Source: Escherichia phage P479
Sequence record: MW269952.1
DNA: 64,000 nucleotides
Strand: one strand, 5' to 3'
The notes beneath the pieces were generated by a model. It searched no databases. It saw nothing but the letters and a program-made list of their open reading frames with translations, and was not told where the DNA came from. A program made the translations under genes and the position numbers. Shown here piece after piece: positions 2,422-38,376 of this stretch (position 1 is the stretch's first letter; every line of letters begins with the position of its first letter).

Positions 2422-3001
<580 letters not shown>

Positions 3002-3045
3002 TGTACAAGCAGGTTGAAATGAGTTATGATTATCCCATCAAACAA
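3002..3045 (+). promoter_or_regulatory. T4-type early promoter (PeSL-like)
   Basis: TGTACA 3002-3007, 17-bp spacer, TATGAT 3025-3030, TATCCCATCAA leader, AAGGAG Shine-Dalgarno before ATG 3058. Confidence 0.55.
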
Positions 3046-3057
3046 AAGGAGATAATC

Positions 3058-3516
3058 ATGACTACTATCGATTCAAGTGTTTACATTCGCCGCAATAAAC
3101 TTCGTCGCATTTTTGAAACGGAGTTCCTCAAAATTAATAATGCTATCAACAAGGCTTGTAAAGAAGCAGGCCTTGAGGCATTCTTCATTAAGTACAGTCC
3201 GCACCTGTTGGACCGTGCAATCCAACGTGAAATTGATGAACAATATGTTTTTGACTTGTTTGGAAAAATCACACCACATGTAAAAGAAATCGTTGAATTC
3301 CTGGAGATGAAACCACTCCCGGAAGTTGAAGCACAAATTGACCCGAATGTGAACTATCGTCCACTTCGTCTGGAAATCACAGACAAGAACCTATGGTTAG
3401 GAATGACAGTTAACCCAGCTCTTCCTGGGAAGTCTCCGACCATGTGTTGTCGTATGGCGTTTGTTAACTCTAATCGTCTGGAAGGAAAAATTAGCACAAA
3501 AGTGATTTATATCTAA
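3058..3516 (+). CDS. regB: RegB sequence-specific endoribonuclease
   Basis: 152 aa; VYIRRNKLRR..HLLDRAIQREIDE..RLEITD..NLWLG..CRMA motifs match T4 RegB. Confidence 0.9.
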   Translation: MTTIDSSVYIRRNKLRRIFETEFLKINNAINKACKEAGLEAFFIKYSPHLLDRAIQREIDEQYVFDLFGKITPHVKEIVEFLEMKPLPEVEAQIDPNVNYRPLRLEITDKNLWLGMTVNPALPGKSPTMCCRMAFVNSNRLEGKISTKVIYI

Positions 3517-7080: not shown

Positions 7081-7105
7081 TTCAAAAGGTCTGCCTTCGG
7101 GTGGA

Positions 7106-7174
7106 CCTTTTTTCATTTAGGGGTTTACAACACCATAAAAAGGGTGTACTATTATCCCATCAACTACTGAGGAG
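7106..7174 (+). promoter_or_regulatory. Early promoter cassette (PeSL), near-identical copy at 38369-38438
   Basis: GTTTACA..GGGTGTACTATTATCCCATCAACTACTGAGGAG, preceded by UUCG hairpin 7087-7113. Confidence 0.65.
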
Positions 7175-7180
7175 AACACA

Positions 7181-7384
7181 ATGAGAATTAAAAATATCAA
7201 GATTGATGCAGTTAATACTGGTGATGAGGTTGTTATCTATCTTAATGATTATGCAATCTTTATGGACAGTGCCACTGATGAAGAAGTGGTTGAACTCTTA
7301 CAGAAAGCTCCATTTGAACTGTGTGAAGAAGATGCTACCCATCTTTCATCAGCAATTTTCTCATTATCATATGTGGTGGAATAA
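7181..7384 (+). CDS. Hypothetical acidic protein
   Basis: 67 aa; starts just after the PeSL cassette. Confidence 0.4.
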   Translation: MRIKNIKIDAVNTGDEVVIYLNDYAIFMDSATDEEVVELLQKAPFELCEEDATHLSSAIFSLSYVVE

Positions 7385-9405: not shown

Positions 9406-10412
9406 GAACAGTTATGAAAGGCTACTTCGGTAGCCACCTTTATGGAACAAGTACCCCAGAATCTGATGTCGATTTTAAAGAAATCTTTGTTCCACATCCT
9501 CGTGATATTCTACTTGGGACGGCGATGAACCATACCAACCTGAACACAAATAACACGGCCACCAAAAATACAAAAGATGATGTTGACCATGAACTTTATA
9601 GTCTGAAATATTTCTTTAAACTGGCAGCCGAAGGCGAAACCGTTGCTCTGGACATGATTCACACCCCGGCTGACCTGGTAGTCAAATCCGATTTACCAGA
9701 TGTATGGAAGTTTATTCAAGACAACCGTTCACGGTTTTATACAACTAACATGAAAGCCTATTTAGGGTATGTCCGTAAGCAAGCTTCTAAATATGGTGTT
9801 AAAGGTTCTCGTCTGGCTGCTCTGCGTGGTGTACTGGCTATTGTTAACCAGATTCCTGAACAGTGGGTCGATTATCAAGAAGACGGTTCGACTAAGCAAC
9901 GTCGCACTAAGGTAGAAGATATCAAACATCGACTCCCTGAAAATGAGTTCTGTGAATGGGTATTCCATAACCACGAGAAAACAGGTCCTCAAACGTTCTA
10001 TACTGTTCTTGGACGTAAGTACCAAACCACCTTGTCTTTAATCGAGCTCAAGCAATCTCTGAATAAGCTCGATGCGGAATATGGTGAACGTGCTCGTAAG
10101 GCTGAAGCCAATGAAGGTATTGACTGGAAAGCATTGAGTCATGCTTACCGAGCTGGATATCAGCTGAAGGAAATTTATATGACCGGTGACCTTCAGTATC
10201 CTTTACGAACAGCACCGTTTATCCTTGAAATCAAACAAGGGCTACATGCTTTTAAAGATGTACAGGCTGAACTTGAAGCTATCGTTGATGAAGTCGAAAC
10301 TAATGCCATCTGGGCTGCTAAGAACGGTATGCCTGCGAAGGTGGACATGAAGTTCTGGGACAAGTTTGTTGAAGAGGTATATCTTGACAACCACAATTCC
10401 TATTATCGTTAA
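9402..10412 (+). CDS. Pol-beta-superfamily nucleotidyltransferase-like protein
   Basis: 336 aa from ATG 9402 (GAGGA Shine-Dalgarno); GSHLYGTSTPESDVDF fits the G[SG]-x9-D-x-D nucleotidyltransferase motif. Confidence 0.55.
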   Translation: MRTVMKGYFGSHLYGTSTPESDVDFKEIFVPHPRDILLGTAMNHTNLNTNNTATKNTKDDVDHELYSLKYFFKLAAEGETVALDMIHTPADLVVKSDLPDVWKFIQDNRSRFYTTNMKAYLGYVRKQASKYGVKGSRLAALRGVLAIVNQIPEQWVDYQEDGSTKQRRTKVEDIKHRLPENEFCEWVFHNHEKTGPQTFYTVLGRKYQTTLSLIELKQSLNKLDAEYGERARKAEANEGIDWKALSHAYRAGYQLKEIYMTGDLQYPLRTAPFILEIKQGLHAFKDVQAELEAIVDEVETNAIWAAKNGMPAKVDMKFWDKFVEEVYLDNHNSYYR

Positions 10413-10418
10413 ATTCTA

Positions 10419-10442
10419 AGGACCCTTCGGGGTCCTTTTTTA
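10419..10442 (+). terminator. Rho-independent terminator (UUCG tetraloop)
   Basis: AAGGACCC-TTCG-GGGTCCTT followed by a T-run. Confidence 0.7.
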
Positions 10443-10455
10443 TTTTAAAAAGTAG

Positions 10456-10510
10456 TGTACAACCAGATGGTCATGAGGCATAATGTTCCCATACTGAGTT
10501 ACCAAATAAA
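10456..10510 (+). promoter_or_regulatory. T4-type early promoter (family with CCATACTGAGTTACCAAA leader)
   Basis: AAAAGTAGTGTACA, 17-bp spacer, CATAAT 10479-10484, then GTTCCCATACTGAGTTACCAAA. Confidence 0.6.
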
Positions 10511-10525
10511 CAAACGGAGAATAAA

Positions 10526-10732
10526 ATGTTAGAATTAATCAAAGCTGCTGGTGAAAAAGGTCTGATGGTTAACACTCGTGACCCAGAACAACGTCAAGCA
10601 TTTGGTGAGTTAAAAGCCAAAGGTCTGGTTAAAGCATCCCTTGGTATTGGTAATGCTTTGCGTGTGACTTTGACCCCTGCGGGTAAAGCAATGTTCTTCC
10701 CTAAACCATTACCAAAACGTCGTCGCAAGTGA
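10526..10732 (+). CDS. Hypothetical small basic protein
   Basis: 68 aa; C-terminal KRRRK tail; GGAG Shine-Dalgarno. Confidence 0.4.
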   Translation: MLELIKAAGEKGLMVNTRDPEQRQAFGELKAKGLVKASLGIGNALRVTLTPAGKAMFFPKPLPKRRRK

Positions 10733-10738: not shown

Positions 10739-11041
10739 ATGAAGAAGTATGAACTTGACATGATTGATGCATGTCTGAAATCTGCTGACCATTTTAAGTT
10801 GAAAATGCACAAGTTAAGAGGAATGGTCAAAACTCCAGAAGAGAAGAAGCGATATGCTCTGAAGGAGAAATGTAAAGCTCTTATCATGATGGATAAGCTG
10901 CAAATGGTCGCCGCAGAAGCTCACAGGACACGTAAAGCTGAGGCCCTTGGTGTTTATATGGCAGAGCAGCTCCATCGCGCCCAGCAAGCCGTTAAGAGCG
11001 TCTGGTTCAGCGGTGAAAATACTGAAAGAACTTTTAATTAA
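10739..11041 (+). CDS. Hypothetical protein
   Basis: 100 aa; basic, helical. Confidence 0.4.
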   Translation: MKKYELDMIDACLKSADHFKLKMHKLRGMVKTPEEKKRYALKEKCKALIMMDKLQMVAAEAHRTRKAEALGVYMAEQLHRAQQAVKSVWFSGENTERTFN

Positions 11042-11044
11042 ATG

Positions 11045-11095
11045 TGTACATAGTATGGGGATAGACGTATAATGTTCCCATACTGAGTTACCAAA
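11045..11095 (+). promoter_or_regulatory. T4-type early promoter (same family as 10456)
   Basis: TGTACA 11045-11050, 17-bp spacer, TATAAT 11068-11073, GTTCCCATACTGAGTTACCAAA leader. Confidence 0.6.
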
Positions 11096-11109
11096 TACTG
11101 GAGAATAAA

Positions 11110-11634
11110 ATGGAAGCTAAATCAATCTTTAATCTGATTAATTACAATAATGGTAATTTTAAATCAGAATCGCAAAGCAAGTTCTTTAATGATGTTGCTT
11201 GTGCGGGTGAGATTACAGTATCAGGTGGTCAGACTTATAAAAACGCCTGGAACTGGATTGTGACTGTTGATTCAGTTGGTATTGTTGATGTGTATAAAAA
11301 CACCAACAAAAACCACTCTTTGTTCTGGTCAAGAGAGACTAATGCAGAATATCAAGCGGCAAGAGCGAAGAAAAATATGCCTACTGAATCTGATGTACAA
11401 AACATCAAATCAGATATCCAATATTATGATGGTCTGATTGCTGAACAACAAGCGGTGCTTGATAAGTTTAATGAAATCAAGGCATGTAAAGAGATTCCTG
11501 AATTCATGCGGGAATCAGTTAATGAACAATACAATCTCACTTCAGAGCGTATTGAAACCTATACCAAACAAAGAGCAGAGCGCCAGGTACTCCTTCAGAA
11601 GTTTGAAGAGCGTTTAAAGACGGTTCTCGCATAA
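11110..11634 (+). CDS. Hypothetical protein
   Basis: 174 aa. Confidence 0.45.
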   Translation: MEAKSIFNLINYNNGNFKSESQSKFFNDVACAGEITVSGGQTYKNAWNWIVTVDSVGIVDVYKNTNKNHSLFWSRETNAEYQAARAKKNMPTESDVQNIKSDIQYYDGLIAEQQAVLDKFNEIKACKEIPEFMRESVNEQYNLTSERIETYTKQRAERQVLLQKFEERLKTVLA

Positions 11635-12761: not shown

Positions 12762-13643
12762 ATGAACATTAAAACACGTAAAGAATATTCTCGATTTGAA
12801 CAGCGTGAAGGACGTGCAACCCGTCTTATCGCGATGAATTCTCTGGTTAACTTTGGCAAAATCAAATCAGGTTCTGCCACCCAGGGGTATGGACAACGTA
12901 TTGTAAGAATTAACTCTCTGAATGATTACTGCCGCCGCCCGGCGTTTTTGTTTGGTGCCACAGTTCGTAAGAGCATCAAGGAAATCCTGGCCGCTGGACT
13001 TCGTATTCGTAAAGCTCCAGTTAACATCAAGAACTATAATTTTACCTCCAGTAACTTGATTATCAATATCAAGAATGATGGTGTGCAGATTAAGTTCAAG
13101 CCAACCACCAAGGGTGATGTTGCTCTTTGTGATACCTTTAAAGAGGTTATGGGTATTGCGCTGTTTTATATGCGCCATGCTGTTGAAGCATACACGTTTG
13201 AAGAAGATACAAATTATATCCACCAAACGGAAAAATTCCTTAAAACTATAACCATTGATATTAAATTGACTAAAGAATATCTTTTGTCTTACGCTCCTTA
13301 TCAGGAGAAAAAGGAACCAGAAATGACAGAACGTATCCCTACCGCATCATATGGCCCAGCATTTGCAGGTCAGTTTAAATCTTACGACCAGGCTAAAATT
13401 TCACCGTTGGACGTTAAAAACATGTACAAATGGAAAGTTCAACCATCCAGCTCTCTTGAAATCTTTAACCCACCAATGAAGCCTATTGAGAGCTATCATG
13501 CTGATGCTATCCAGGAATCAGTCAACCGCTTAAATGGTCTGATTGAAGATGAGAAAAAGGGTATCCAGGATGTTCTGAATCGCATCAAGAACATGGAAAC
13601 ACAACGCAATAAATTGCAGGCGGCGATTTTAGCATTAAAATAA
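12762..13643 (+). CDS. Hypothetical protein with C-terminal coiled coil
   Basis: 293 aa from ATG 12762; C-terminus ...LNGLIEDEKKGIQDVLNRIKNMETQRNKLQAAILALK. Confidence 0.45.
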   Translation: MNIKTRKEYSRFEQREGRATRLIAMNSLVNFGKIKSGSATQGYGQRIVRINSLNDYCRRPAFLFGATVRKSIKEILAAGLRIRKAPVNIKNYNFTSSNLIINIKNDGVQIKFKPTTKGDVALCDTFKEVMGIALFYMRHAVEAYTFEEDTNYIHQTEKFLKTITIDIKLTKEYLLSYAPYQEKKEPEMTERIPTASYGPAFAGQFKSYDQAKISPLDVKNMYKWKVQPSSSLEIFNPPMKPIESYHADAIQESVNRLNGLIEDEKKGIQDVLNRIKNMETQRNKLQAAILALK

Positions 13644-13644
13644 T

Positions 13645-13690
13645 GTTTACTTCCAAGGATGGAGGGAGTATAATGAATTCCTACTTTATG
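13645..13690 (+). promoter_or_regulatory. T4-type early promoter
   Basis: GTTTAC 13645-13650, 18-bp spacer, TATAAT 13669-13674; GAGGAG Shine-Dalgarno before ATG 13702. Confidence 0.55.
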
Positions 13691-13701
13691 AGGAGAACAC
13701 T

Positions 13702-14691
13702 ATGACACGTAACGAATATATCCAGGCCTTTAACGCAACTATCGACACAAAAGTAAAACCATTGACAGGCGAATCGGCTATCCTTTTAATTATCAATTAT
13801 TGGTTAAATCAGATTGATTCGACGATTGTTGCATCTGGTCGCTTCAAGAAAGACATTGCAACTATTGCGAGTCGTGCCGGTAATGATGATATCAAGAAAA
13901 CTTTTAAAGGTTCCAGAGTCCTGGCGTACCTGGTTAATAAAGACCTTCTTCATAAGTTTGGTGTTGAATCCAACCGCGGTAAAGGTACAATTGGGTATCA
14001 TTGGTTTGGCGATGTTGAAAAATACTACCTTGATAAACAAGGCTATACTGTTTCTGAATTCGCACATTGCTGGGCTCGTGAATTCAGAGATAACAAAATG
14101 TCTATCATAAAATCAGCGACAAAATTGATGGGCGGTGATTTTCGCACTATCTCCCATTTGGCTGAGCACATGATAAAGGTTAAAGAGTCTGGTGAAAACC
14201 AGGTAATTATTACAGTTAAGCATGAGTTCTTTACGCCGGTGGCTACTCCAGAAAATGTCAAAAAGTATCTTGATGTTGCCTGTACGCTTACTCATCAGCT
14301 GGTGTGTGCCCTTAACTATATGCGCACTGTTGAAAAAATTAAAGTAGACCCTATCACCAGTGCTCATGGTTGGAAAGGTTGGAAAATTGTGGTGACATTA
14401 CGCGAAGTTAAATGTGCAAAACAACCAACTGATGCAGAAATTTATAAAAAGAAAAGTGAGGAAATTATGAATGCACCACAAGAAACCACCCTTGAAGACC
14501 TGATTGATAATCTGAATAATGAGCCAGCGGAACAAAAAGCGCCTGAAATTGTTGCTCTGGAAATGGCGTATAATAAAGCTCTTGCTGTTAATAAAAAGGC
14601 AACTGAAGACTATACTAAAGCCAAGCGACTTTGGGAAGAATCAACCAATCGTCTGGATAAACTGGAACAAGCTCTGGAGCTGCTGAAATGA
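13702..14691 (+). CDS. Hypothetical protein with C-terminal coiled coil
   Basis: 329 aa; C-terminus ...[32 protein letters not shown]. Confidence 0.45.
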   Translation: MTRNEYIQAFNATIDTKVKPLTGESAILLIINYWLNQIDSTIVASGRFKKDIATIASRAGNDDIKKTFKGSRVLAYLVNKDLLHKFGVESNRGKGTIGYHWFGDVEKYYLDKQGYTVSEFAHCWAREFRDNKMSIIKSATKLMGGDFRTISHLAEHMIKVKESGENQVIITVKHEFFTPVATPENVKKYLDVACTLTHQLVCALNYMRTVEKIKVDPITSAHGWKGWKIVVTLREVKCAKQPTDAEIYKKKSEEIMNAPQETTLEDLIDNLNNEPAEQKAPEIVALEMAYNKALAVNKKATEDYTKAKRLWEESTNRLDKLEQALELLK

Positions 14692-15938: not shown

Positions 15939-16069
15939 GCCATGGTATGTCGCTCGGTGGGATACGATAGAACCTACCGAGCCAGAGGAACCTGTTTACA
16001 ACGGTTCCGAAATAGAGTATAATGAACCTTCAAACAATGAGTTAATCGATATGGAGTTTGGGTTTTACT

Positions 16070-16376: not shown

Positions 16377-16850
16377 ATGTTGTTGACTGGCAAATTATAC
16401 AAAGAAGAAAAACAAAAACTTTATGATGCACAAGCTGGTAAGTGTCCAATTTGCCACCGTGATTTGGACTCTGATGTTCAGGCCAACCATCTTGACCATG
16501 ACCACGAATTGAACGGACCAAAAGCCGGTAAGGTTCGCGGGTTACTATGCAATCTGTGCAATGGAACAGAAGGACAAATGAAGCATAAGTTCAGCCGTTC
16601 GGGTCTAAAAAGTCGCGATGTTGACTACCTGGAATGGTTAGAGAGTTTGCTTGTCTATCTGAAATCTGATTATACCGAAAACAATATTCACCCCAATTTT
16701 GTAACAGACAAAGCCAAAGAGTTTGGCCGCCTGGGGAAAGAAGAAATGATTCGGGAAATGCTTTTGAATGGTATGACTTATAATGAATCTGACACCAAAA
16801 CACAATTAATGGCTTCATTTAAGAAGCAGCTTAGAAAGAGTTTAAAATGA
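16377..16850 (+). CDS. 49: Endonuclease VII (Holliday-junction resolvase)
   Basis: 157 aa; MLLTGKLYKEEKQK.YDAQ.GKC.IC.R...HLDHDHELNGPKAGKVRGLLCNLCN nearly identical to T4 gp49. Confidence 0.95.
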   Translation: MLLTGKLYKEEKQKLYDAQAGKCPICHRDLDSDVQANHLDHDHELNGPKAGKVRGLLCNLCNGTEGQMKHKFSRSGLKSRDVDYLEWLESLLVYLKSDYTENNIHPNFVTDKAKEFGRLGKEEMIREMLLNGMTYNESDTKTQLMASFKKQLRKSLK

Positions 16851-18664
16851 CAATTGAAAACGAAATTGAAGGATTGATTCATAAAACTAATAAAGACCTT
16901 TTAAACGAGAATGCTAATAAAGATTCTCGTGTTTTTCCAACTCAACGTGACCTTATGGCTGGTATTGTATCTAAACACATTGCCAAAAATATGGTCGCGT
17001 CTTTTATTATGAAAGCACATGAAAGCGGAATTATTCATTTCCATGATATTGATTATTCCCCTGCTCTTCCATTTACTAATTGTTGTTTAGTAGATTTAAA
17101 AGGAATGCTTGAGAACGGATTTAAGCTCGGTAATGCGCAGATTGAAACTCCCAAATCAATCAGTGTTGCTACTGCAATTATGGCACAAATTACTGCGCAG
17201 GTTGCTTCCCATCAATATGGTGGAACGACTTTTGCGAATGTAGATAAAGTACTTTCTCCTTATGTTAAACGTACCTATGCGAAACATATTGAGGACGCGG
17301 AAAAATGGCAAATCACCGATGCATTGAATTATGCCCAATCTAAAACAGAAAAAGACGTATATGATGCATTCCAAGCTTATGAATATGAAGTAAATACTCT
17401 CTTTAGCTCAAATGGTCAGACTCCTTTTGTGACAATTACATTTGGTACCGGAACTGACTGGACCGAACGAATGATTCAGAAAGCAATTCTGAAAAATCGT
17501 ATTAAAGGGCTTGGTCGTGATGGGATAACTCCTATTTTCCCTAAACTTGTTATGTTCGTTGAAGAAGGTGTTAATCTTTATAAAGACGACCCGAACTATG
17601 ATATTAAGCAGCTTGCTTTAGAGTGTGCAAGCAAAAGAATGTATCCTGATATCATTTCAGCTAAGAATAACAAAGCTATCACTGGTTCATCTATTCCTGT
17701 TTCTCCAATGGGTTGTCGTAGTTTCTTGAGCGTATGGAAAGATTCGACTGGTAATGAAATTCTTGATGGACGTAATAATCTTGGTGTTGTAACATTAAAT
17801 CTTCCTCGTATTGCGTTAGATTCTTATATTGGAACGCAGTTCAATGAACAGAAATTTACTGAATTGTTCAATGAGCGAATGGATTTATGTTTTGAAGCTT
17901 TGATGTGTAGAATTAGTTCCTTAAAAGGAGTTAAAGCGACTGTTGCTCCTATTCTTTACCAAGAAGGTGCATTCGGGGTTCGTCTTAAACCTGATGATGA
18001 TATAATTGAGTTATTTAAAAACGGTAGAAGTTCAGTGTCCCTGGGATACATTGGTATTCACGAATTGAATATTCTTGTCGGTCGTGATATTGGACAGGAA
18101 ATTTTGACTAAAATGAATGCTCGTCTTAAGCAGTGGACCGAAAGAACCGGATTTGCTTTTAGCTTGTATTCTACTCCTGCTGAAAACCTGTGTTATCGCT
18201 TCTGTAAACTTGATACCGAAAAATATGGAAGTGTAAAAGATGTTACCGATAAAGGCTGGTACACTAATAGTTTCCATGTTTCAGTAGAAGAAAATATCAC
18301 TCCGTTTGAAAAGATTTCTCGCGAAGCACCATATCATTTCATTGCGACAGGTGGTCACATTTCTTATGTTGAACTTCCTGATATGAAAAATAACCTAAAA
18401 GGTCTTGAGGCTGCATGGGATTATGCCGCACAACATTTAGATTATTTTGGTGTTAATATGCCAGTAGATAAATGTTTTACGTGCGGAAGTACCCATGAAA
18501 TGACTCCTACTGAAAACGGATTTGTTTGTTCTATTTGTGGAGAAACTGACCCTAAAAAGATGAACACAATAAGAAGAACATGTGGCTATTTGGGGAATCC
18601 GAACGAACGTGGATTTAATCTCGGCAAAAATAAAGAAATCATGCATAGGGTTAAACACCAATGA
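16847..18664 (+). CDS. nrdD: Anaerobic ribonucleoside-triphosphate reductase
   Basis: 605 aa; glycyl-radical C-terminus and Cys4 zinc site (CFTCGS...CSICG); uninterrupted. Confidence 0.9.
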   Translation: MTIENEIEGLIHKTNKDLLNENANKDSRVFPTQRDLMAGIVSKHIAKNMVASFIMKAHESGIIHFHDIDYSPALPFTNCCLVDLKGMLENGFKLGNAQIETPKSISVATAIMAQITAQVASHQYGGTTFANVDKVLSPYVKRTYAKHIEDAEKWQITDALNYAQSKTEKDVYDAFQAYEYEVNTLFSSNGQTPFVTITFGTGTDWTERMIQKAILKNRIKGLGRDGITPIFPKLVMFVEEGVNLYKDDPNYDIKQLALECASKRMYPDIISAKNNKAITGSSIPVSPMGCRSFLSVWKDSTGNEILDGRNNLGVVTLNLPRIALDSYIGTQFNEQKFTELFNERMDLCFEALMCRISSLKGVKATVAPILYQEGAFGVRLKPDDDIIELFKNGRSSVSLGYIGIHELNILVGRDIGQEILTKMNARLKQWTERTGFAFSLYSTPAENLCYRFCKLDTEKYGSVKDVTDKGWYTNSFHVSVEENITPFEKISREAPYHFIATGGHISYVELPDMKNNLKGLEAAWDYAAQHLDYFGVNMPVDKCFTCGSTHEMTPTENGFVCSICGETDPKKMNTIRRTCGYLGNPNERGFNLGKNKEIMHRVKHQ

Positions 18665-19131
18665 ATTATGATAGATTTTATCCTTGCGATTTTGTGAATG
18701 GCCCTGGATGCAGGGTCGTTCTTTTCGTTACAGGTTGTTTGCATAAATGTGAAGGGTGTTATAATAAATCAACATGGAATGCTAGAAATGGTGTTCCATT
18801 CACTGGTGAAACACTAGAACAATTAATTGAATGTTTGAATAATGATTATATAGAAGGATTAACTATAACCGGGGGAGACCCTTTCTATCCCGATAACCGA
18901 GATGTTATTCACTCTGTGGTTCAAACTATTAAAAATCTTTATCCCAATAAAAGCATTTGGATGTGGACAGGATATAAGTTTGAAGATATTAAACAACTAG
19001 AAATGCTTAAATATGTTGATGTTATTATTGATGGGAAGTATGAGAAAAATCTTCCGACCAAAAAACTGTGGCGAGGGTCAGATAATCAGCGACTTTGGTC
19101 AAATACCGATGGGGTGTGGAAACATGATTAA
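18661..19131 (+). CDS. nrdG: Anaerobic RNR activating enzyme (radical SAM)
   Basis: 156 aa; CxxxCxxC radical-SAM cluster (CLHKCEGCYN). Confidence 0.9.
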   Translation: MNYDRFYPCDFVNGPGCRVVLFVTGCLHKCEGCYNKSTWNARNGVPFTGETLEQLIECLNNDYIEGLTITGGDPFYPDNRDVIHSVVQTIKNLYPNKSIWMWTGYKFEDIKQLEMLKYVDVIIDGKYEKNLPTKKLWRGSDNQRLWSNTDGVWKHD

Positions 19132-19245
19132 ATTGAATTACATTATGGGTACTATAAATGATATGATTTTTCATTTTGGTCCAGAATTTTATTCGCAGTA
19201 TAGTTTAGTGCTTATCAATGCTTGGTTAATCAATTAAGGGTAAAT

Positions 19246-19461
19246 ATGGATAAATTTAGAAATGCTGCAGCAGATATTCTGGCAAACATAACGCTTGTTT
19301 TGTTCATCGTTTGTCTGCTTATTCTGGCTATCCCGTTTGGTTTGCTGTTTGTTATCATCGGTTGGTTAAGCACCAATCCTGGCCTCGAAAGCTCTGAATT
19401 CAACAAACGAATCCAGGCTATCCATAGTACCATTGCAAAAATGATGAAGGTGAAAGAATGA
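19246..19461 (+). CDS. Hypothetical membrane protein
   Basis: 72 aa from ATG 19246; central transmembrane helix. Confidence 0.4.
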   Translation: MDKFRNAAADILANITLVLFIVCLLILAIPFGLLFVIIGWLSTNPGLESSEFNKRIQAIHSTIAKMMKVKE

Positions 19462-19757: not shown

Positions 19758-20055
19758 GATTGAAATCTATGGTATCCCCGAAGAAGTCGGTCGATGCCCC
19801 GGTTGTATGCACGTCAGGAGCCTTCTGGGCTCCTTAAACCTTCCTTATACATTCTATTCAGTCCTTAACAAACAAGGCTCTGAAATCGCTTATGACAGGC
19901 CTTTAATCGTGTCTCTGGCTAAGCGTGCTGGATATCCTACCCTTAACATTCGGTACCCGGTGATTTTTGTCAATGATGAAAAAATGACCAATATTCCTGC
20001 CTTTAAAACAAAACTGATATCCCTGGGGTATGACCAGGATTTAATTGAAGATTAA
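19738..20055 (+). CDS. nrdH: Glutaredoxin-like protein (NrdH-like)
   Basis: 105 aa with GTG start; CPGC active site after a beta-strand (KIEIYGIP); T4 has nrdH beside nrdG. Confidence 0.55.
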   Translation: MGQNSTKIEIYGIPEEVGRCPGCMHVRSLLGSLNLPYTFYSVLNKQGSEIAYDRPLIVSLAKRAGYPTLNIRYPVIFVNDEKMTNIPAFKTKLISLGYDQDLIED

Positions 20056-20056
20056 A

Positions 20057-20115
20057 AAAGGGGTGTACAAGCCCCTTTGAATGATGTATCATTATCCCAT
20101 CAACTACTGATGAGG
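20057..20115 (+). promoter_or_regulatory. Hairpin plus early promoter (PeSL)
   Basis: AAAGGGG-TGTACAAG-CCCCTTT hairpin carrying TGTACA (-35), TATCAT 20087-20092, leader TATCCCATCAACTACTGATGAGGAG. Confidence 0.55.
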
Positions 20116-20123
20116 AGAACATT

Positions 20124-20300
20124 ATGACTATCCAAGATAAAGAAATTAAAGTCAACCAGTATTATTCAATCAACGGCAAAGCTGTTCTAGTAACTGAAAT
20201 ATCTAGCCTGGATGTGTGGTATACCATAATTGACCTTAATATTAAAATGATTTGTGACCGTGGTGTATTTTGTTCGATAGCTAAGGAAATTAAATTATGA
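20124..20300 (+). CDS. Hypothetical small protein
   Basis: 58 aa, below ORF-track cutoff; immediately after PeSL leader. Confidence 0.35.
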   Translation: MTIQDKEIKVNQYYSINGKAVLVTEISSLDVWYTIIDLNIKMICDRGVFCSIAKEIKL

Positions 20301-21052: not shown

Positions 21053-21110
21053 AAACCAACGGGGTCATGGTATAATGACCCCAGGATAATAAAATTTTAA
21101 TTGAATGAGA
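21048..21110 (+). promoter_or_regulatory. PeSL hairpin with -10 box in loop
   Basis: GGGGTCA-tggTATAATg-TGACCCC (21061-21081). Confidence 0.5.
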
Positions 21111-21124
21111 CTGAGGAATATATC

Positions 21125-21451
21125 ATGACTGCATCTATCACTAACACCATCGCTAATTTCGCATTTGCTAAAGTTAACACTCTGATGAAATCTGGTTTCG
21201 TCACCCCTGAGATTCTGGACCAGTGGGAAGGCGATGTACAGAAGTTGATTATTGCAGAAGGTCAGACAATGGGTAAAGCGCGTATTCGTGAAAGCCTTGT
21301 CCAGTATATCCTGAATGAATTTGATGTAGTAGCGTTTGGTCTACCGCTCCCACGTGAAAACAAAGAAGTTTCCGATAAAGCCATCAAGCGTATGAACTCC
21401 CAGCGCAAGAAAGGTTTTGTTGACCTGAAAATTATTAAGGGTGCGAAATGA
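21125..21451 (+). CDS. Hypothetical protein
   Basis: 108 aa from ATG 21125; GAGGAA Shine-Dalgarno. Confidence 0.4.
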   Translation: MTASITNTIANFAFAKVNTLMKSGFVTPEILDQWEGDVQKLIIAEGQTMGKARIRESLVQYILNEFDVVAFGLPLPRENKEVSDKAIKRMNSQRKKGFVDLKIIKGAK

Positions 21452-25464: not shown

Positions 25465-27143
25465 AGACTTTTAAGCTTAAGAAAGTTATCTATAAAAATA
25501 TTATGTCGGTTGGTGCTCAACCGATTACTGTTGAACTGGATAAAGTCCAGAAAACTCTGGTCACCGGCAAGAATGGTGCGGGTAAATCTACGTTCCTTGA
25601 AGCGGTTACCTTTGCTATGTTCGGTAAGCCTTTCCGTGATGTAAAGAAAGGCCAGTTGATTAACTCGAGCAACAAAAAAGATATGCTCGTTGAATTGTGG
25701 ATGGAATATGATGGAAAAGAATACTATATCAAACGCGGGCAAAAACCCAATGTTTTTGAAATCTCTTGTGGCGGTAAACGTCTTGATGAATCTGCCAGCA
25801 GTAAAGACTTCCAAGCGGAATTTGAACAGCTCATCGGAATGTCCTATGCAAGCTTCAAACAGATTGTCGTACTCGGCACAGCTGGATATACCCCTTTTAT
25901 GGGCCTATCCACTCCTGCAAGAAGAAAACTTGTCGAAGACCTTTTAGAGGTTTCTGTACTGGCCGATATGGATAAGCTGAACAAATCTCTTATCCGCGAA
26001 GTCAATAGTCAAATCCAGGTGATGGATGTGCAGCATGACGGGATTGTTCAACAGATTAAAATCTATCAGGACAACGAAGACCGTCAAAGAAAATTATCAG
26101 GTGATAATCTGTTGCGGCTGCAAACGATGTATGATGAACTTGCCACAGAAGCACGTGGAATCAAGACAACTATCGAAGAAGCAACGACAAGACTGACCGA
26201 GATAATCTTGGGAGAAGACCCTGAGCATGAACTCACGAAGTTAAAGCAGGAATCATTCCTGATTAAGTCGAAGATAGACGATTACCGAAAGGTTGTTGGT
26301 CTGTACGAGAAAGGTGGTTGCTGTCAGACTTGCGCCAGTCAGTTGCATCCAGGAGACCCTATTGTCGCCAGGATTGAGTCAAAGATTGAAGAATGTAATG
26401 TATCAGCTGATAACCATAAAGCTCGCCAGAACGCTGTTCAGGAGCAATTTGATGCGTATTCTGCTGCAAGACAAAAACAACGTACAATAGCTCAAGACAT
26501 TCAAACCAAGAAACAAACCTTAGTCCAGACTGTCGAAAAAGCTAAAAAGGTTAAAGCATTAATCGAGCAAGCTAAGTCAGAATTCATCGACCATGCAGCA
26601 GACATTAAAATGCTTCAAGACCAGCTTGATAAAATAGTCAAACAGAAATCCGACCTTGTGATGGAAAAATATCAACGTGGTATTCTAACGGATATGTTGA
26701 AAGATTCCGGTATCAAAGGCGCGATTATTAAGAAATATATTCCCATCTTTAATAAGCAGATAAACGCTTATCTTAAAGTTATGGAAGCTGATTATAGTTT
26801 TACGTTAGATGAAGAGTTCAACGAAACGATTAAATCTCGTGGACGTGAAGACTTCAGCTATGCATCATTTAGCCAGGGTGAAAAAGCTCGTATCGATATC
26901 GCATTGCTGTTTACATGGCGTGATATTGCTGCGAAAGTATCTGGTGTGCAAATTAGTACGTTGATTCTGGATGAGGTCATGGATTCAGCCACTGACGCCG
27001 AAGGCATCAAAGCTATCCAGGCAATTATTAATAAATTGGAAGGTCAAAACGTGTTTATCATTAGCCATCGTGAACACGACCCAGAAGCATATGGACAGCA
27101 TCTTCAAATGAAAAAAGTCGGTCGATTTACTGTTCTGGAATGA
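25461..27143 (+). CDS. 46: Recombination endonuclease subunit gp46 (Rad50/SbcC-like ATPase)
   Basis: 560 aa; Walker A GKNGAGKST, coiled-coil middle with CxxC zinc hook (CCQTCAS), signature FSQGE and Walker B LILDEV. Confidence 0.9.
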   Translation: MKTFKLKKVIYKNIMSVGAQPITVELDKVQKTLVTGKNGAGKSTFLEAVTFAMFGKPFRDVKKGQLINSSNKKDMLVELWMEYDGKEYYIKRGQKPNVFEISCGGKRLDESASSKDFQAEFEQLIGMSYASFKQIVVLGTAGYTPFMGLSTPARRKLVEDLLEVSVLADMDKLNKSLIREVNSQIQVMDVQHDGIVQQIKIYQDNEDRQRKLSGDNLLRLQTMYDELATEARGIKTTIEEATTRLTEIILGEDPEHELTKLKQESFLIKSKIDDYRKVVGLYEKGGCCQTCASQLHPGDPIVARIESKIEECNVSADNHKARQNAVQEQFDAYSAARQKQRTIAQDIQTKKQTLVQTVEKAKKVKALIEQAKSEFIDHAADIKMLQDQLDKIVKQKSDLVMEKYQRGILTDMLKDSGIKGAIIKKYIPIFNKQINAYLKVMEADYSFTLDEEFNETIKSRGREDFSYASFSQGEKARIDIALLFTWRDIAAKVSGVQISTLILDEVMDSATDAEGIKAIQAIINKLEGQNVFIISHREHDPEAYGQHLQMKKVGRFTVLE

Positions 27144-27900
27144 GCCTCTTATTGAGGCTTCATTTTGCAGTTATCAAAATGCCAACGTTTCATATTGGCT
27201 GGCGTACCGACTACATTACAATGTGGACACTGAATTTTGGGGTCCACCTTTTTCTTCCGGTTTGGATTGGATTTGCAGAATTGTTGGTGAGTGGATATAA
27301 CACACTTTTTACCTTCAAGACCACAAAATTCACAAGTTAAAATTTCATGTTTAGCTTGTTTTAATCCTACTGAAATTTTTTGCTTTTGTTTTTCTGGAAT
27401 AGTATGAACAACCTTGTTTGGACCTTTGGAACAGTTATCAAAATGCCAACGATTCATATTGCCAACGAGACCGGTTTTTCCACAGTGTGGACATTCAACT
27501 CTCGGTTTTAATTTGGCGGATTCTGACATTTTCTTTCTGGTTTCATCGGAGAAAATTTTATTTTGTTGAGCTTCCAAGTTTTTACGACGAAGCCATCCAA
27601 ATAATTTGTTTTTGCTTCTGTCGGCGTTTGGTGAGGAAACTGTCATCATGCGCGCGGCATAGACCAAAGAAGCATTATTTGGATGCATTTTGACCAACAG
27701 TTGATGACAAACGAAATGTTCCTCGGGAGTTAAATCAACAAGATTTGAAGCGTCGTCTGCCCCACCCATACAACGGGGTATAATGTGATGACTTTCAGAG
27801 TATGTGGTTAATTTGCGATTCAATGCTCTGCTAATAAGCTTTTGGTAAATGATGTTATAATTCATATCAGACCCTTGTTTGATACTGCAACGGATAATAT
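27144..27900 (-). mobile_element. Homing-endonuclease insertion between genes 46 and 45
   Basis: Only antisense gene in a co-directional replication-gene block; HNH family. Confidence 0.55.
27149..27865 (-). CDS. Free-standing HNH homing endonuclease with three zinc-ribbon repeats
   Basis: 238 aa from the internal Met (MNYNIIYQKL); HNH motif SHHIIPRCMGGADDASNLVDLTPEEHFVCH; three CPHCGKTG/NMNRWHFDNC-type repeats; AAGGG Shine-Dalgarno. Confidence 0.75.
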   Translation of the reverse strand: MNYNIIYQKLISRALNRKLTTYSESHHIIPRCMGGADDASNLVDLTPEEHFVCHQLLVKMHPNNASLVYAARMMTVSSPNADRSKNKLFGWLRRKNLEAQQNKIFSDETRKKMSESAKLKPRVECPHCGKTGLVGNMNRWHFDNCSKGPNKVVHTIPEKQKQKISVGLKQAKHEILTCEFCGLEGKKCVISTHQQFCKSNPNRKKKVDPKIQCPHCNVVGTPANMKRWHFDNCKMKPQ

Positions 27901-28121
27901 TATTTATGAGCAATTTTTTAACCGGGCAGCATTTACTGGCTGTCCCTGAAATTAAACGGTATGTGTTAGTTAATACCTTTTCGAAAGATGAACACCTTGT
28001 TACTGAACGTGACTTACAAAACGCTTTCGGTGAAGAATATGTTAAAATAATCGCGAACAGACACAATGCCTGGTTCGCATATGAATACTTTGATTAATTG
28101 ATAATGAATAGAGAGAATATT

Positions 28122-31512: not shown

Positions 31513-34227
31513 ATGCAAGAATTTTATTTAACTATCGAACAAATCGGTGACAACCTACACGAACGATATATTGACAAGAATGGTCATGAACGTGTTCGTG
31601 AAATCCCTTATGCTCCATGCTTGTTTATGCACGCCCGTGAAGACCAGGCTGCAAAGTATACAGACATCTATAATAAAGGTTGTGTGAAAAAAGAATTCGA
31701 TTCCATGCGTGATGCATCCCAGTGGATGAAGCGAATGAATGACATGGGTCTCGAAGCTATGGGTATGGATGACTTTAAACTCGCATACTTGTCCGACCGT
31801 TACCCACACGAAATCAAATATGATTCAAGTAAAATCCGTGTTGCTAACTTCGATATCGAGGTGACATCTCCTGACGGGTTCCCTGAGCCGTCTGAAGCAC
31901 GTCACCCTATTGATGCCCTGACGCACTATGATTCGGTAGACGATAAATTCTATGTCTTTGACCTTTTGGGCTCACCATACGCCACTGTGGAGCAATGGTC
32001 TATTGATATTGCTGCTAAGCTGCAGGAAGACGGTGGTGATGAAGTCCCTGAAGAAATCCTGGAAAAAATTGTTTATATGGCTTTCGATTCAGAAGAAGAA
32101 ATGCTCCAGCAGTATTTGGTATTCTGGAACGAGAAAACTCCGGTTATGTTAACTGGTTGGAACATTGAGAAGTTTGATATTCCATATATCTACAACCGCC
32201 TTAAAAATGTATTTGGTGAAGCTACAGCAAAACGTCTGAGCCCACATCGTCGTACAAAAGTTAAGGTCATTAACAACGGCTTTGGTGAAGAACAAGAAAT
32301 CATTCAGATTCTGGGTATCTCTGTTCTGGATTATCTGGACCTGTATAAAAAGTTCAGCTTCACAAACCAACCGTCTTATTCGTTGGATTATGTTGCGGAA
32401 TCTGAACTGGGTGTTGGTAAACTCCCGTATGATGGCCCGATTTCTAAACTGCGCGAATCAAATCACCAGCGGTATATTTCTTATAACATCATCGACGTTT
32501 ATCGTGTTGTGCAGATTGACCGTAAGCGGCAGTTTATTAACCTGAGTCAGTCAATGGGTTATTATGCAAAGATGCAGATTCAGTCTGTATTCAGCCCAAT
32601 CAAAACTTGGGATGCGATTATCTTTAACAGCCTGAAGACTCAAAACAAAGTCATTCCGGAAACCAAATCGCATGTTCGTCAATCGTTCCCTGGTGCATTT
32701 GTTAAGGAACCGATTCCAAACGCGTACAAATATGTAATGAGCTGTGACTTAACATCTCTGTATCCGAGCATCATCCGACAGATTAACATCAGTCCAGAAA
32801 CGATTGCCGGTTCATTTGCTCCAGCCCAGATGTATGAATACATCGCAGGAACTGCTGACCGTCCATCTGATACATTTAGTTGTGCTCCAAATGGTATGAT
32901 GTATTTTAAAGATGTTGCGGGTATTATTCCGACAGAAGTCACCAAGGTGTTTAATCAGCGTAAAGAACACAAAGGCTATATGCTTGCGGCTCAACGTAAT
33001 GGTGAACTGATTAAGGAAGCTCTGCGTAATCCAGGAACTGGTACAACCGAGCCTGAAGTTGATTATCGTTATGACTTTGATGATAATATGAAAACAACCT
33101 TGCATGGTCTGAATCAAACAGTTCTGAATGGTATGTTGTACAAAGCGCAGATGGAAGAAGTTGCAGGCATGACCGCACAGATTAACCGTAAACTACTTAT
33201 CAACAGTTGTTATGGTGCTCTGGGTAATATCTGGTTCCGTTACTTTGACCTGCGAAATGCGACCGCGATTACATCTTTCGGACAACTTGCATTGCAGTGG
33301 ATTGAGCGTAAAGTTAACGAATACTTCGATAGTGTTTGTGGGACAAGCGGCGAAACTTATGTATTCTATGGCGATACTGACTCCATTTATATCCAGTGCG
33401 ATAACCTGATTAAAAAGGTTGGTGGCGAATCTAAATTCCGTGATACAAACCACCTGGTTGACTTCATGGACAAGTTTGCGAAAGACCGTCTGGAACCGGC
33501 AATCGATAAAGCTTTCCGTGAGCTGGCTGAATACATGAACAACAAACAGCACCTTATGTTTATGGACCGTGAAGCGATTGCATGTCCTCCGCTAGGTTCT
33601 AAAGGTGTGGGTGGATTCTGGACGGCGAAGAAGCGTTATGCGCTGAACGTGTACGATATGGAAGGCACACGATATGCTGTTCCGAAACTGAAAATCATGG
33701 GTCTGGAAACTCAAAAGTCGAGTACTCCAAAGGCATGTCAGAAAGCTCTGAAAGAATGTATCCGCCGTATGCTGCAAGAAGGTGAAGAATCTCTGCAGAC
33801 ATACTTCAAGGAATTCAATAAGGAATTTAATGAGCTTAACTACATGACCATCGCTGGTGTATCATCGGTTAACAACATCCAGAAATATAATGAAGGTGGT
33901 TTCCCTGGATTTAAGTGTCCGGCTCATATCAAAGGTGTGCTTGCATATATGCGTGCAACTAAAGGCCTGAAGACTGTTCCACAAATCATGGAAGGGGAAA
34001 AGGTGTATGTACTTCCTCTTAAAGTTGGCAACCCGTTTGGTGAAACCGTGATTGCATGGCCATCAGGGATTGAACTCCCGATTGAAATTCGTGACCAAGT
34101 CCTGCAGTGGATGGACTACAACACACTGTTCCAGAAGACTTTTGTTAAGCCATTAACAGGTTTCTCTGAAGCCGCAAAGGTTGATTACGAAAAGAAAGCA
34201 ACTCTTTTTGACATGTTTGACTTTTAA
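31513..34227 (+). CDS. 43: DNA polymerase gp43 (family B, with 3'-5' exonuclease)
   Basis: 904 aa; exo motifs FDIEV and YNIIDV, polymerase motifs SLYPSII, KILINSCYG and YGDTDS; no intron. Confidence 0.95.
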   Translation: MQEFYLTIEQIGDNLHERYIDKNGHERVREIPYAPCLFMHAREDQAAKYTDIYNKGCVKKEFDSMRDASQWMKRMNDMGLEAMGMDDFKLAYLSDRYPHEIKYDSSKIRVANFDIEVTSPDGFPEPSEARHPIDALTHYDSVDDKFYVFDLLGSPYATVEQWSIDIAAKLQEDGGDEVPEEILEKIVYMAFDSEEEMLQQYLVFWNEKTPVMLTGWNIEKFDIPYIYNRLKNVFGEATAKRLSPHRRTKVKVINNGFGEEQEIIQILGISVLDYLDLYKKFSFTNQPSYSLDYVAESELGVGKLPYDGPISKLRESNHQRYISYNIIDVYRVVQIDRKRQFINLSQSMGYYAKMQIQSVFSPIKTWDAIIFNSLKTQNKVIPETKSHVRQSFPGAFVKEPIPNAYKYVMSCDLTSLYPSIIRQINISPETIAGSFAPAQMYEYIAGTADRPSDTFSCAPNGMMYFKDVAGIIPTEVTKVFNQRKEHKGYMLAAQRNGELIKEALRNPGTGTTEPEVDYRYDFDDNMKTTLHGLNQTVLNGMLYKAQMEEVAGMTAQINRKLLINSCYGALGNIWFRYFDLRNATAITSFGQLALQWIERKVNEYFDSVCGTSGETYVFYGDTDSIYIQCDNLIKKVGGESKFRDTNHLVDFMDKFAKDRLEPAIDKAFRELAEYMNNKQHLMFMDREAIACPPLGSKGVGGFWTAKKRYALNVYDMEGTRYAVPKLKIMGLETQKSSTPKACQKALKECIRRMLQEGEESLQTYFKEFNKEFNELNYMTIAGVSSVNNIQKYNEGGFPGFKCPAHIKGVLAYMRATKGLKTVPQIMEGEKVYVLPLKVGNPFGETVIAWPSGIELPIEIRDQVLQWMDYNTLFQKTFVKPLTGFSEAAKVDYEKKATLFDMFDF

Positions 34228-34296
34228 GTGTTTACAACGGCAATGGATTGCCGTATGATTACCGCATCAACTGATGAATAACTTAAGGATATTAAA

Positions 34297-34539
34297 ATGG
34301 AAACATTAATTGCGGGTACTGTTGTTCTTGGGGCTGGTTCTTTCTTCCTGGCTGCACTGACATATTTTCTGCCGTGGATTATCGCGCTGCTGCGTGGTAC
34401 CAAAAGTAATTGCGGAATCTTCTTTGTTAACCTCCTGTTAGGTTGGACAATGGTCGGATGGTTTATTGCATTTATCTGGGCACTCGTTGCTGAACGTAAA
34501 TCAAACGCACAAGTAATTATCATCAAGGAAGCAAAATGA
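34297..34539 (+). CDS. imm: Small membrane protein, Imm-like by position
   Basis: 80 aa; two transmembrane helices; directly after gene 43 as in T4. Confidence 0.4.
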   Translation: METLIAGTVVLGAGSFFLAALTYFLPWIIALLRGTKSNCGIFFVNLLLGWTMVGWFIAFIWALVAERKSNAQVIIIKEAK

Positions 34540-38357: not shown

Positions 38358-38376
38358 AGACCTTCGGGTCTTTTTC
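38357..38376 (+). terminator. Rho-independent terminator (UUCG tetraloop)
   Basis: AAGACC-TTCG-GGTCTT followed by TTTTT. Confidence 0.7.

Follow-up and report, generated by a model that had tools for sequence, protein, structure and literature searches.

Nearly identical stretches of 44-68 nt stand before unrelated small genes in the 64,000 nt of Escherichia phage P479 analysed here (sequence record MW269952.1; the window), and in some of them a promoter -10 box lies in the loop of a hairpin. The locus at 7106-7174 is one such copy, and the question that it raises is what these repeats are and what the hairpins do in them. A preliminary description of the window had likened them to the promoter-early stem-loop (PeSL) cassettes proposed to drive modular shuffling in T4-type phages. 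We consider it probable that the repeats are immediate-early promoters built as PeSL-type composite cassettes, with stem-loops that act in sense RNA reading through from upstream.

This phage is T4-like, about 95-98% identical to Shigella phage SP18 (Gaprivervirus, Tevenvirinae), whose annotation supplies the gene order; the window corresponds to the early-gene arm of the genome. A probe of 3 kb matched SP18 at 97.7% identity and had matches in 110 phage records; seven Gaprivervirus relatives are 92-95% identical to the window over 64 kb. All substantial open reading frames (ORFs) are carried by the + strand. From the window start the genes run denV, internal-protein genes, regB (3058-3513), tk, mobD, nrdC, 49, nrdD, 55, 47, 46, 45, 44, 62 and regA, then gene 43 (31513-34227), and then imm, uvsX, 41, sp, 61, modB/modA, srd, dda, dexA, motB, 39, rIIA, rIIB, denB and ndd. 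A search of Rfam returned no family at the gathering threshold anywhere in the window.

Three repeat families had been described. The first, given as about 68 bp at roughly 92% identity, was found at 7107-7174 and 38370-38437 with 91% identity over 68 nt. Its copy A precedes mobD.5 (7085-7183: terminator 7085-7110, -35 at 7124, -10 TACTAT at 7147, ATG at 7181), and copy B occupies 38356-38449 (terminator 38356-38373, -35 at 38387, -10 at 38410, ATG at 38447). The second family, 44 nt with one mismatch, does recur from 52274-52317, but its second copy lies at 63296-63339 and not at 63304-63347, 8 nt away from where it had been placed; the cassettes concerned precede motB (52264-52349: -35 at 52276, -10 at 52299, ATG at 52347) and ndd (63286-63373: -35 at 63298, -10 at 63321, ATG at 63371). 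The third family was recovered as proposed: CCATACTGAGTTACCAAA occurs at 10489, 11078, 47868 and 62010, four matches against 0.04 expected, and AAAGTAGTGTACA has nine + strand matches, where 1.7 would be expected for the two strands combined. Its members are the cassettes at 10418-10528 (terminator 10418-10437, -35 at 10456, -10 CATAAT at 10479, ATG at 10526), 11033-11112 before nrdC.8 (-35 at 11045, -10 at 11068, ATG at 11110), 47824-47912 before srd (-35 at 47836, 16-nt spacer, -10 at 47858, ATG at 47910) and 61965-62047 (-35 at 61977, -10 at 62000, ATG at 62045), with a variant at 38684-38776 (-35 at 38696, -10 CATAAT at 38719, ATG at 38774). A conserved leader, CCATCAACTACTGA, had also been claimed; it has 17 matches against 5.9 expected, 10 of which fall in the cassettes listed here, all on the + strand.

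A genome-wide motif search had been suggested as a check. A position-weight matrix of the whole cassette retrieved 25 sites across the window, all on the + strand and scoring 13.4-43.6, while the best minus-strand score was 10.9 and the best of five shuffles 12.6. Together with one related hairpin/-10 element that has no -35, at 21071, these 25 co-oriented cassettes make up the 26 listed elements, which occupy less than 4% of the window; cassettes are named below by the position of their -35, and all coordinates refer to the + strand. From 5' to 3' the parts are an A-tract, a -35 box GT(G/T)TACA, a 17-nt spacer, the -10 box, CCC, a leader A(+1)TCAACTAC and a Shine-Dalgarno (SD) sequence, and the extended consensus reads aaaaAa..GTgTACAa-N17-TATAATgatCCCATCAACTAcTGa. 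All 25 sites fit GT(G/T)TACA-N16-17-TATAAT-like boxes with an A-tract, the promoter part of a PeSL, and every cassette ends 3' in an SD and an ATG on the + strand, excluding the weak candidate at 15995. Between 36000 and 55999 a generic sigma-70 scan found 68 promoter-like sites against 59.6 expected, no better than shuffles; thus the signal resides in the extended consensus. The corresponding scan for terminators gave 16 terminator-like sites against 14.4 in shuffles and is unusable as evidence. The transcription start is placed at the A of ATCAACTAC (or ATACTGAG), because the CCC at -3 to -1 agrees with published early-promoter logos (PMC1524935); starts predicted in this way from the consensus, about 7 nt past the -10, include 125, 911, 3037, 7159, 10491, 11080, 20099, 38422, 39125, 39705, 46513, 52311, 61670, 62012, 62434 and 63333.

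PeSL cassettes were described in RB49/phi1 and later in PST/T4 and nt-1/KVP40 (Arbiol et al. 2010, PMC2839356; Comeau et al. 2014, PMC4122927). The identification with them holds for every feature visible in the sequence: a sigma-70-like promoter with an AT-rich upstream tract, the positions of the stem-loops, an SD and ATG, intergenic co-orientation and copies before unrelated genes. As in PeSLs, the cassettes are composites of an AT-rich tract, sigma-70-like -35 and -10 boxes, a stem-loop, an SD and an ATG; stem-loops lie upstream, around the -35, between the boxes or around the -10 (the position classes of PMC2839356) and include G·T pairs; near-identical copies precede unrelated small genes; and some indel junctions coincide with cassettes. 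Unlike the published examples, these come from another genus, Gaprivervirus (JS98 received only a passing mention in 2010; PMC2839356), their -35 is GT(G/T)TACA and not TTGACA, and their stems are not simple polyG/polyC. One more T4-like genus thus joins the phages known to carry PeSL-type early-promoter cassettes.

The resemblance to T4 early promoters is equally close. In these the common consensus is known to reach past the -35 and -10 (Hinton 2010, PMC2988021; Nolan 2006, PMC1524935), and the early-promoter logos of RB69, RB49 and 44RR have C-rich or CCC sequence at -3 to -1 (Nolan 2006, PMC1524935). Like the T4 'über' UP/-35/TGn/-10 promoters (PMC2988021), the window cassettes have an A-tract around -40, a GTTTAC-like -35, a TATAAT -10 and C-rich positions -3 to -1, and they stand before orthologues of T4 early genes, namely denV, internal-protein genes, regB, imm, sp, modB, modA, srd, motB and ndd. 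Unlike in T4, the third -35 position is mostly G and not T, TGn is not prominent, and the transcribed leader, ATCAACTAC or ATACTGAGTTACCAAA, is strongly conserved.

The preliminary description had the -10 in a hairpin loop in many copies. The three stems that it quoted, GGGGTCA/TGACCCC, GGGATA/TATCCC and GATAGGG/CCCTATC, are all present, but only about one third of the copies have this architecture. A perfect stem of at least 7 bp encloses the -10 in 7 of 23 cassettes, more than with swapped partners (p=0.007) or shuffled spacers (p=0.0005), and among 218 distinct cassette-like sequences such stems occur in 27% against 4% with swapped partners. RNA folding supports fourteen cassette hairpins (z-scores between -2.3 and -7.8). 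About 17 of the 25 cassettes have a stem-loop in a position described for PeSLs, and the remainder are without a convincing stem.

About nine elements have the hairpin around the -10. The cassette before denV (78-147: -35 at 90-95, -10 at 113-118, predicted +1 at 125, ATG at 145) forms TGATAGGGT/ACCCTATCA, with an outer helix TCTCC/GGAGA that masks the SD (z = -6.7); that of the second internal-head-protein gene (865-932: -35 at 877, -10 at 899-904, ATG at 930) has a perfect 11-bp stem TTGATGGGATA/TATCCCATCAA, 13 pairs in the predicted fold (z = -4.7). Cassette 11045 pairs AGTATGGG with CCCATACT (z = -4.3), the cassette before sp (spackle; 39658-39729: -35 at 39670, -10 at 39693, ATG at 39727) pairs GGGATAAT with ATTATCCC (z = -4.4), and cassette 61977 has a 14-pair hairpin UCAGUAUGGAGUCA/UGGCUUCAUACUGA (z = -6.4). 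The motB cassette (52276) carries TGGGGTCA/TGACCCCA, and cassette 63298 has the same hairpin (z = -4.0). Before ndd.4 (62388-62456: -35 at 62400, -10 at 62422, ATG at 62454) the whole spacer TCTCCGGTGGTTGTAG pairs with leader and SD, CTATCAACTACTGGAGA, and leaves the -10 in the loop (fold z = -4.9; z = -2.1 for ribosome-binding site (RBS) burial). The ninth is the element without a -35 before gp55.2 (21056-21127: TGgTATAAT, -10 at 21071-21076, ATG at 21125), in which GGGGTCAT (21061-21068) and ATGACCCC (21075-21082) flank TGgTATAAT and are followed by GGATAATAAAA (z = -3.2).

In two cassettes a terminator-like hairpin lies around the -35. That before gp55.6 (20052-20126: -35 at 20064, -10 TATCAT at 20087, ATG at 20124) has the form AAAGGGG-TGTACAAG-CCCCTTT, and that at 39083-39147 (-35 CTTACA at 39090, -10 at 39113, ATG at 39145) the form AAAGGGGC-TTACA-GCCCCTTTTT. 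The cassette between gene 43 and imm (34219-34299: -35 at 34231, -10 TATGAT at 34254, ATG at 34297) has a spacer hairpin ACGGCAA/TTGCCGT, and a separate upstream terminator is found at 7124, 10456, 38387 and 56833, the last a weak cassette (56805-56881: terminator 56805-56826, -10 TAAGAT at 56856, ATG at 56879; score 15.2). A hairpin followed by a T-run, as in intrinsic terminators, stands at 7085, 10418, 38356, 39083 and 56805. The -10-enclosing hairpins are followed by ACTGGAG, ATCAAC and similar sequences with no U-tract. Upstream terminator and -10 hairpin are never combined: none of the cassettes with a -10 hairpin has an upstream terminator, and five or six of the others do. At the terminator of 56805-56826, SP18 and TH57 differ in stem sequence and keep the TTCG loop.

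Sequence variation among relatives indicates where these hairpins act. Loci whose products are related to MotB, DenV, NrdC.8, Sp, Ndd, RegB and ModB were retrieved from IMG/VR. The register of the motB hairpin is constant across three lineages, with the stems TGGGGTCA/TGACCCCA, GGGACCA/TGGTCCT and GAGAGCCAT/ATGGCTCTC. In an ungapped alignment of 14 sequences 92% of the cells are paired, against 35-46% with the partner columns slid, and both sides have changed in five of the nine pairs. RNAalifold independently predicts the same helix, keeping eight pairs, and 13 of the 14 non-Watson-Crick cells in these are sense-strand G·U pairs, leaving one true mismatch. Over the 218 sequences, sense-strand G·U lengthens stems more than antisense G·U does (Wilcoxon p = 9e-5). 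Since the G·U pairs are confined to the sense strand, the hairpins would act in RNA; and since the 5' arm precedes the cassette's own inferred start, only read-through transcripts would form them. These findings argue for stem-loops that are conserved sense-RNA structures with promoter DNA as the 5' arm, a feature that would be new here. In the modB cassette, pair 56-75 is U·G, U-A or C-G among relatives; the IMG/VR search for modB returned only three close relatives, so that this helix has no cross-genus test.

In some cassettes the predicted pairing extends to the site of translation initiation. In seven to nine cassettes the partner of the SD/AUG, or of GGAG, is a 5' arm that precedes the predicted start: candidate gating helices, with the start sites placed as above, are those of 3002, 20064, 38387, 46478, 61635, 62400 and 90, and for 52276 and 63298 only the GGAG is involved, CUCU pairing with GGAG 3' of the hairpin. 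At 3002, 38387, 46478, 61635 and 20064 the -10 and discriminator pair with the SD/AUG. Before regB (2990-3060: -35 at 3002, -10 TATGAT at 3025, ATG at 3058) they form ATGATTATC, which pairs with the SD-AUG region GATAATCAT (fold z = -5.9, RBS-burial z = -2.4), and before modB (46466-46536: -35 at 46478, -10 CATAAT at 46501, ATG at 46534) a stem of 15 pairs extends from the -10 as far as the SD and AUG (fold z = -7.8, RBS-burial z = -3.2). At 61623-61696, a weak promoter match (-35 at 61635, -10 AATAAT at 61658, ATG at 61694; score 13.4), a 13-bp stem AATAATGTCCTCA/TGAGGACATTATC sequesters the SD (fold z = -5.4, RBS-burial z = -5.2). In cassette 38387 TATTATCC (-9 to -2) pairs with the SD region GGATAATA, and the leader hairpin CCCATCA/TGATG-A-GG of 20064 involves the SD (RBS-burial z = -4.2).

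Similar pairings recur beyond the window lineage; within that lineage itself SD-occluding helices vary little. JS98-like, RB69-like and other T4-like phages often have CTCC in the spacer just past the -35, which pairs with the downstream GGAG. Among 34 distinct cassettes with a CTCC spacer and a GGAG SD this helix is extended by at least 3 bp in 22, against 11.5% in all-against-all pairings, and 11 different extension sequences were found, e.g. TGTAGATG/CATCTACA, TTTTAGT/ACTAAAA, GTTTG/CAAAC and TCTTG/CAAGA. The regB orthologues show three different solutions for the anti-SD arm, and in both cases the variation is that of a helix kept up by compensatory change. Of 252 sequences, 21% have a promoter (-30 to -1) that is perfectly complementary over 8 bp or more to its own RBS (-16 to +4 around the AUG); with swapped partners the figure is 2.3%. 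Measured against a shuffled upstream part, RBS burial has a z of -2 or below in 6 of 24 window cassettes; over the 218 sequences the z for RBS accessibility is below -2 in 14% and above 2 in 5%. In the cassette's own transcript the mean unpaired fraction of the RBS is 0.67 for the window cassettes. At denV the SD is masked by promoter sequence in almost every T4-like lineage (loci L030-L065), each with a different arm, e.g. CTCCTGTAGATG, CCTCCAAG, CTCCGTTTG, ATGTCCTCC and ATAGTAGCCT; the RB69 version, CCTCCAAG/CTTGGAGG, is at least 95% identical in 235 phage records.

The same initiation regions contain putative targets of the endoribonuclease RegB. The strong consensus for cleavage by RegB/S1 reads GG*AGRAYARAA (Durand et al. 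2006, as given in the Uzan and Miller review, PMC3014915). Allowing at most one mismatch, 11 of its 15 + strand matches in the window fall in 11 of the 26 listed elements (10 cassettes and the 21071 element), and all three perfect matches (GGAGAATAAAATG) lie inside listed elements: the SD of 10456 (GGAGAATAAAA) and those of 11045 and 39090. The motif is either the SD itself or stands just 3' of the hairpin, as does GGAGAATAAAC, 2 nt past the stem in the motB cassette, and GGAGCACAAAA past that of 63298. The regB gene has its own cassette and its own GGAG SD. As for the RegB/S1 targets of T4 early mRNAs, these putative sites lie at initiation regions and regB is present; unlike the T4 targets, the GGAG of several cassettes is predicted to be base-paired in read-through RNA. 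The region some 60 nt upstream of ndd (63298-63371 in the window) has no early promoter in distant T4-like contigs (L134-L139); their leader has a hairpin GGCCGC...GCGGCC followed directly by GGAGUAGAAAA. Thus the unit of hairpin and RegB site exists without a promoter in the loop.

We propose that the host sigma-70 RNA polymerase reads the cassettes as immediate-early promoters and that transcripts reading through from upstream would form the stem-loops, whose 5' arm lies in the spacer, -10 or discriminator; RNA begun at the cassette itself could not form them. In five or six cassettes, an ordinary hairpin with a T-run upstream of or around the -35 would serve as a terminator. In about nine elements, the -10-enclosing hairpin without a U-tract may be an attenuator or 3'-end structure, as has been proposed for PeSLs. 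In the seven to nine cassettes with a helix to the SD/AUG or GGAG, read-through RNA would be poorly translated and protected from RegB, and promoter-proximal RNA would be open. Copying or gene conversion between cassettes would account for the near-identical copies before unrelated genes, and cassettes would be occasional recombination junctions, not the main ones.

It is tempting to go further and to regard the stem-loops, here and in PeSLs generally, as promoter-embedded RNA switches rather than primarily as terminators or recombination handles, a possibility that we put forward tentatively. The published PeSL papers treat the stem-loop as a terminator or attenuator (PMC2839356; PMC4122927), and the 2010 paper makes no mention of translation, ribosomes or RegB (PMC2839356). 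Hairpins that sequester an RBS are known from T4 e, soc, 49 and I-TevI and from mobE in Aeh1 (review PMC3014915), and sigma-B isoform-specific translation from B. subtilis (PMC8208050). As in e, soc, 49, I-TevI and the sigma-B isoforms, a modelled SD/AUG helix has its 5' arm upstream of the proximal start, so that the long RNA would be closed and the promoter-proximal one open. Unlike in those T4 genes, where the proximal promoter is late and early read-through is silenced, the promoter here would be immediate-early, with its own spacer or -10 serving as the arm, and this layout is found repeatedly, at many genes and across several genera.

If the switch idea is right, many immediate-early genes would depend on their own promoter both for expression and for inactivation by RegB, the e/soc/49/I-TevI principle would extend to early genes across T4-like genera, and the sharp drop in early protein synthesis after early-promoter shut-off would be partially explained. 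Such RNA structures may help to explain how T4-like phages keep immediate-early expression within the first minutes of infection, a matter still not fully understood according to reviews. This mechanistic outcome is the more useful one, since it offers a testable reinterpretation of PeSL stem-loop function.

Several points weigh against the proposal of promoters with embedded RNA structures. Promoter activity and the +1 positions are deduced from the consensus, and the group-wide sequence sets include orthologues and hence are not independent. The lack of a U-tract means that intrinsic termination is not expected from the sequence of the -10-enclosing hairpins. The mean unpaired fraction of the RBS in the 24 window cassettes is 0.49 in read-through RNA and 0.54 with a shuffled upstream part (p=0.15), and in five cassettes whose hairpins are purely local the RBS is more open than in the control. 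Moreover, SD occlusion could be a by-product of selection for hairpins, because leaders are only about 25 nt long and any intergenic hairpin is apt to overlap the SD and to place its 5' arm before the transcription start. Since RBS burial is not significant window-wide, gating can be claimed for a subset of cassettes at best and is no general rule.

A different explanation, which we regard as doubtful but serious, holds that the cassettes are mainly portable homology, as in the modular shuffling model of PeSLs, and that crossovers between them excise, insert or swap the intervening genes and so delimit variable islands. Mini-circles between PeSLs have been shown experimentally in RB49/phi1 (PMC2839356), and exchange and concerted evolution between cassette copies are visible. 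The spacers of families 1 and 2 are identical at 16 of 17 bases despite unrelated downstream genes. Two pairs of cassettes are 91-98% identical over 44-68 nt before such genes, compared with 60-78% for the other cassettes. The spacer that cassette 11045 has in the window stands in SP18 at the locus corresponding to 10456, the loci 7124 and 38387 have polymorphisms in common among relatives, and in one relative with a 100% identical DenV protein a different cassette stands upstream of denV. The motB and ndd cassettes are 92% identical to each other in the window lineage and 72% in JS98-like phages, whereas orthologues across lineages are only 40-50% identical. The same comparisons underlie the copying or gene conversion that forms part of our own proposal.

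Several junctions with the relatives lie at cassette edges, as the shuffling model would have it. Homology with five relatives begins exactly at the -35 of the denV cassette (position 90); relatives carry insertions (191, 442 and 1011 bp) that stop immediately 5' of the -35 at 10456, and six relatives have 256-357 bp inserted immediately 5' of that at 39670. A 724-bp module at 38358-39083, consisting of two cassette-plus-ORF units, is absent from four relatives and ends at the next cassette, and the gene after the 61977 cassette is replaced in six relatives, with the junction at 62050. At the internal-protein locus there are junctions at 610-642 and 930-965, and at 873 and 930 in EAWsc9, TH40, TH41 and TH44.

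The preliminary description went on to have the cassettes mark the boundaries of accessory islands, a claim that fared poorly. Only 6 of 44 indel or replacement clusters touch a window cassette under a strict definition, and 11 of 44 under a generous one that includes the cassettes of the seven aligned relatives. Enrichment of breakpoints is modest against a uniform expectation (p=0.03) and absent against a non-coding or gene-junction expectation (p about 1), the junction-based expectations being approximate because the gene caller is rough and missed 7181-7384 and 39727-40020. Genes after cassettes are not significantly more variable than others (7 of 23 against 21 of 114; odds ratio 1.9, p=0.25). 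Where the events are clearest, one of the junctions lies at a stop codon without cassette homology, the observed spacers are not obtainable by simple crossover between flanking cassettes, and any tolerated insertion would leave a junction just 5' of a -35. Homing-endonuclease genes account for some of the other junctions, e.g. the window-specific GIY-YIG gene at 53982-54782 and the endonucleases annotated in DK-13. In this the window cassettes differ from published PeSLs, as their association with gene-content breakpoints is weak, and the small share of gene-content differences within Gaprivervirus for which they account tempers the shuffling model. A simple crossover between flanking cassettes was also tried as a model of individual events; it fails to reproduce the junctions at 10412-10455 or 38358-39083 and was rejected.

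It is improbable that the repeats are merely strong promoters that look alike through the constraint of RNA polymerase, their hairpins and copy similarity being incidental. The extended consensus known from T4 early promoters (PMC2988021; PMC1524935) and the many window cassettes that have no convincing hairpin would suit such an account, but promoter function does not constrain the spacers that are 16/17 identical in two pairs, the stems exceed the swapped-partner and shuffle controls, and the compensatory changes across genera largely refute it. That the inverted repeats act in DNA, as the operator of a dimeric repressor or as a cruciform exposing the -10 or attracting endonuclease VII, is very improbable and was rejected, even though they straddle the -10, where a repressor would act, and T4 early-promoter shut-off is incompletely understood (PMC3014915; PMC2988021): the arms differ completely between cassettes and orthologues, so that there is no common operator, the G·T intermediates occur on the sense strand only and would turn into A·C mismatches on a cruciform's opposite strand, and many helices extend to the SD/AUG, far from the promoter.

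Five further cassettes complete the set. A weaker one precedes an internal-head-protein gene (539-612: -35 TGTACG at 551, -10 at 574-579, ATG at 610; score 15.6), and another stands before nrdC.4 (13634-13704: -35 TTTACT at 13646, -10 at 13669, ATG at 13702). At 15983-16060 TTTACA-17-TATAAT, with its -35 at 15995, is a weak candidate only (score 19.1); it belongs to a remnant stretch flanked by two indel junctions and has no clear gene start downstream. The modA cassette occupies 47067-47141 (-35 at 47079, -10 TAAGAT at 47102, ATG at 47139), and the family 3 variant at 51183-51257 (-35 at 51195, -10 CATAAT at 51218, ATG at 51255) has a leader hairpin CTCATCA/TGATGAG that reaches the SD. The RefSeq lengths of modA (648 nt) and gp013 (306 nt) in SP18 place their ATGs at 47106 and 51207, inside the cassette -10 or spacer; the SD-preceded ATGs at 47139 and 51255 are likely to be the real starts.

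Repeats other than the cassettes also lie at or near junctions. The first codons of the neighbouring internal-head-protein genes (MKTYQEFI...; 607-634 and 927-954) are 89% identical in DNA, and the junctions at 610-642 and 930-965 fall inside this stretch, which recalls the polymorphism of the T-even internal-protein locus. A repeated translation-initiation motif without a promoter, CTTTAAnTnCTGAGGAAAATATTATG, is present at 62552-62577 and 62716-62741, with similar copies at 8930, 11675, 35376 and 63349; as indel junctions at 62561-62577 and 62739-62741 lie exactly on the first two, repeated RBS leaders may also be recombination sites. A 45-nt direct repeat (40419-40463 and 40777-40821, 93% identical) forms the 3' ends of two adjacent ORFs and adjoins the gene 40821-41012, which EAWsc9 lacks.

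Two ORFs in variable segments are candidates for, or resemble, mobile endonucleases. Just 5' of gene 39, 53982-54782 (+) encodes 266 amino acids with GIY-YIG, NUMOD3 and I-TevI DNA-binding domains, a Seg-like homing endonuclease, and the 781-bp segment 53993-54775 is window-specific, being absent from all seven relatives. Between genes 46 and 45.2/rpbA, a 773-bp segment (27141-27915) is missing in six of the seven. The ORF 27149-28066 (-), the only long one on the minus strand, encodes 305 amino acids, for which Pfam gives only a zinc ribbon, weak and under the family cut-off; a free-standing endonuclease is a possibility. In TH44, 134 bp replace the 2.4 kb (16837-19246) that carry nrdD and nrdG in the window.

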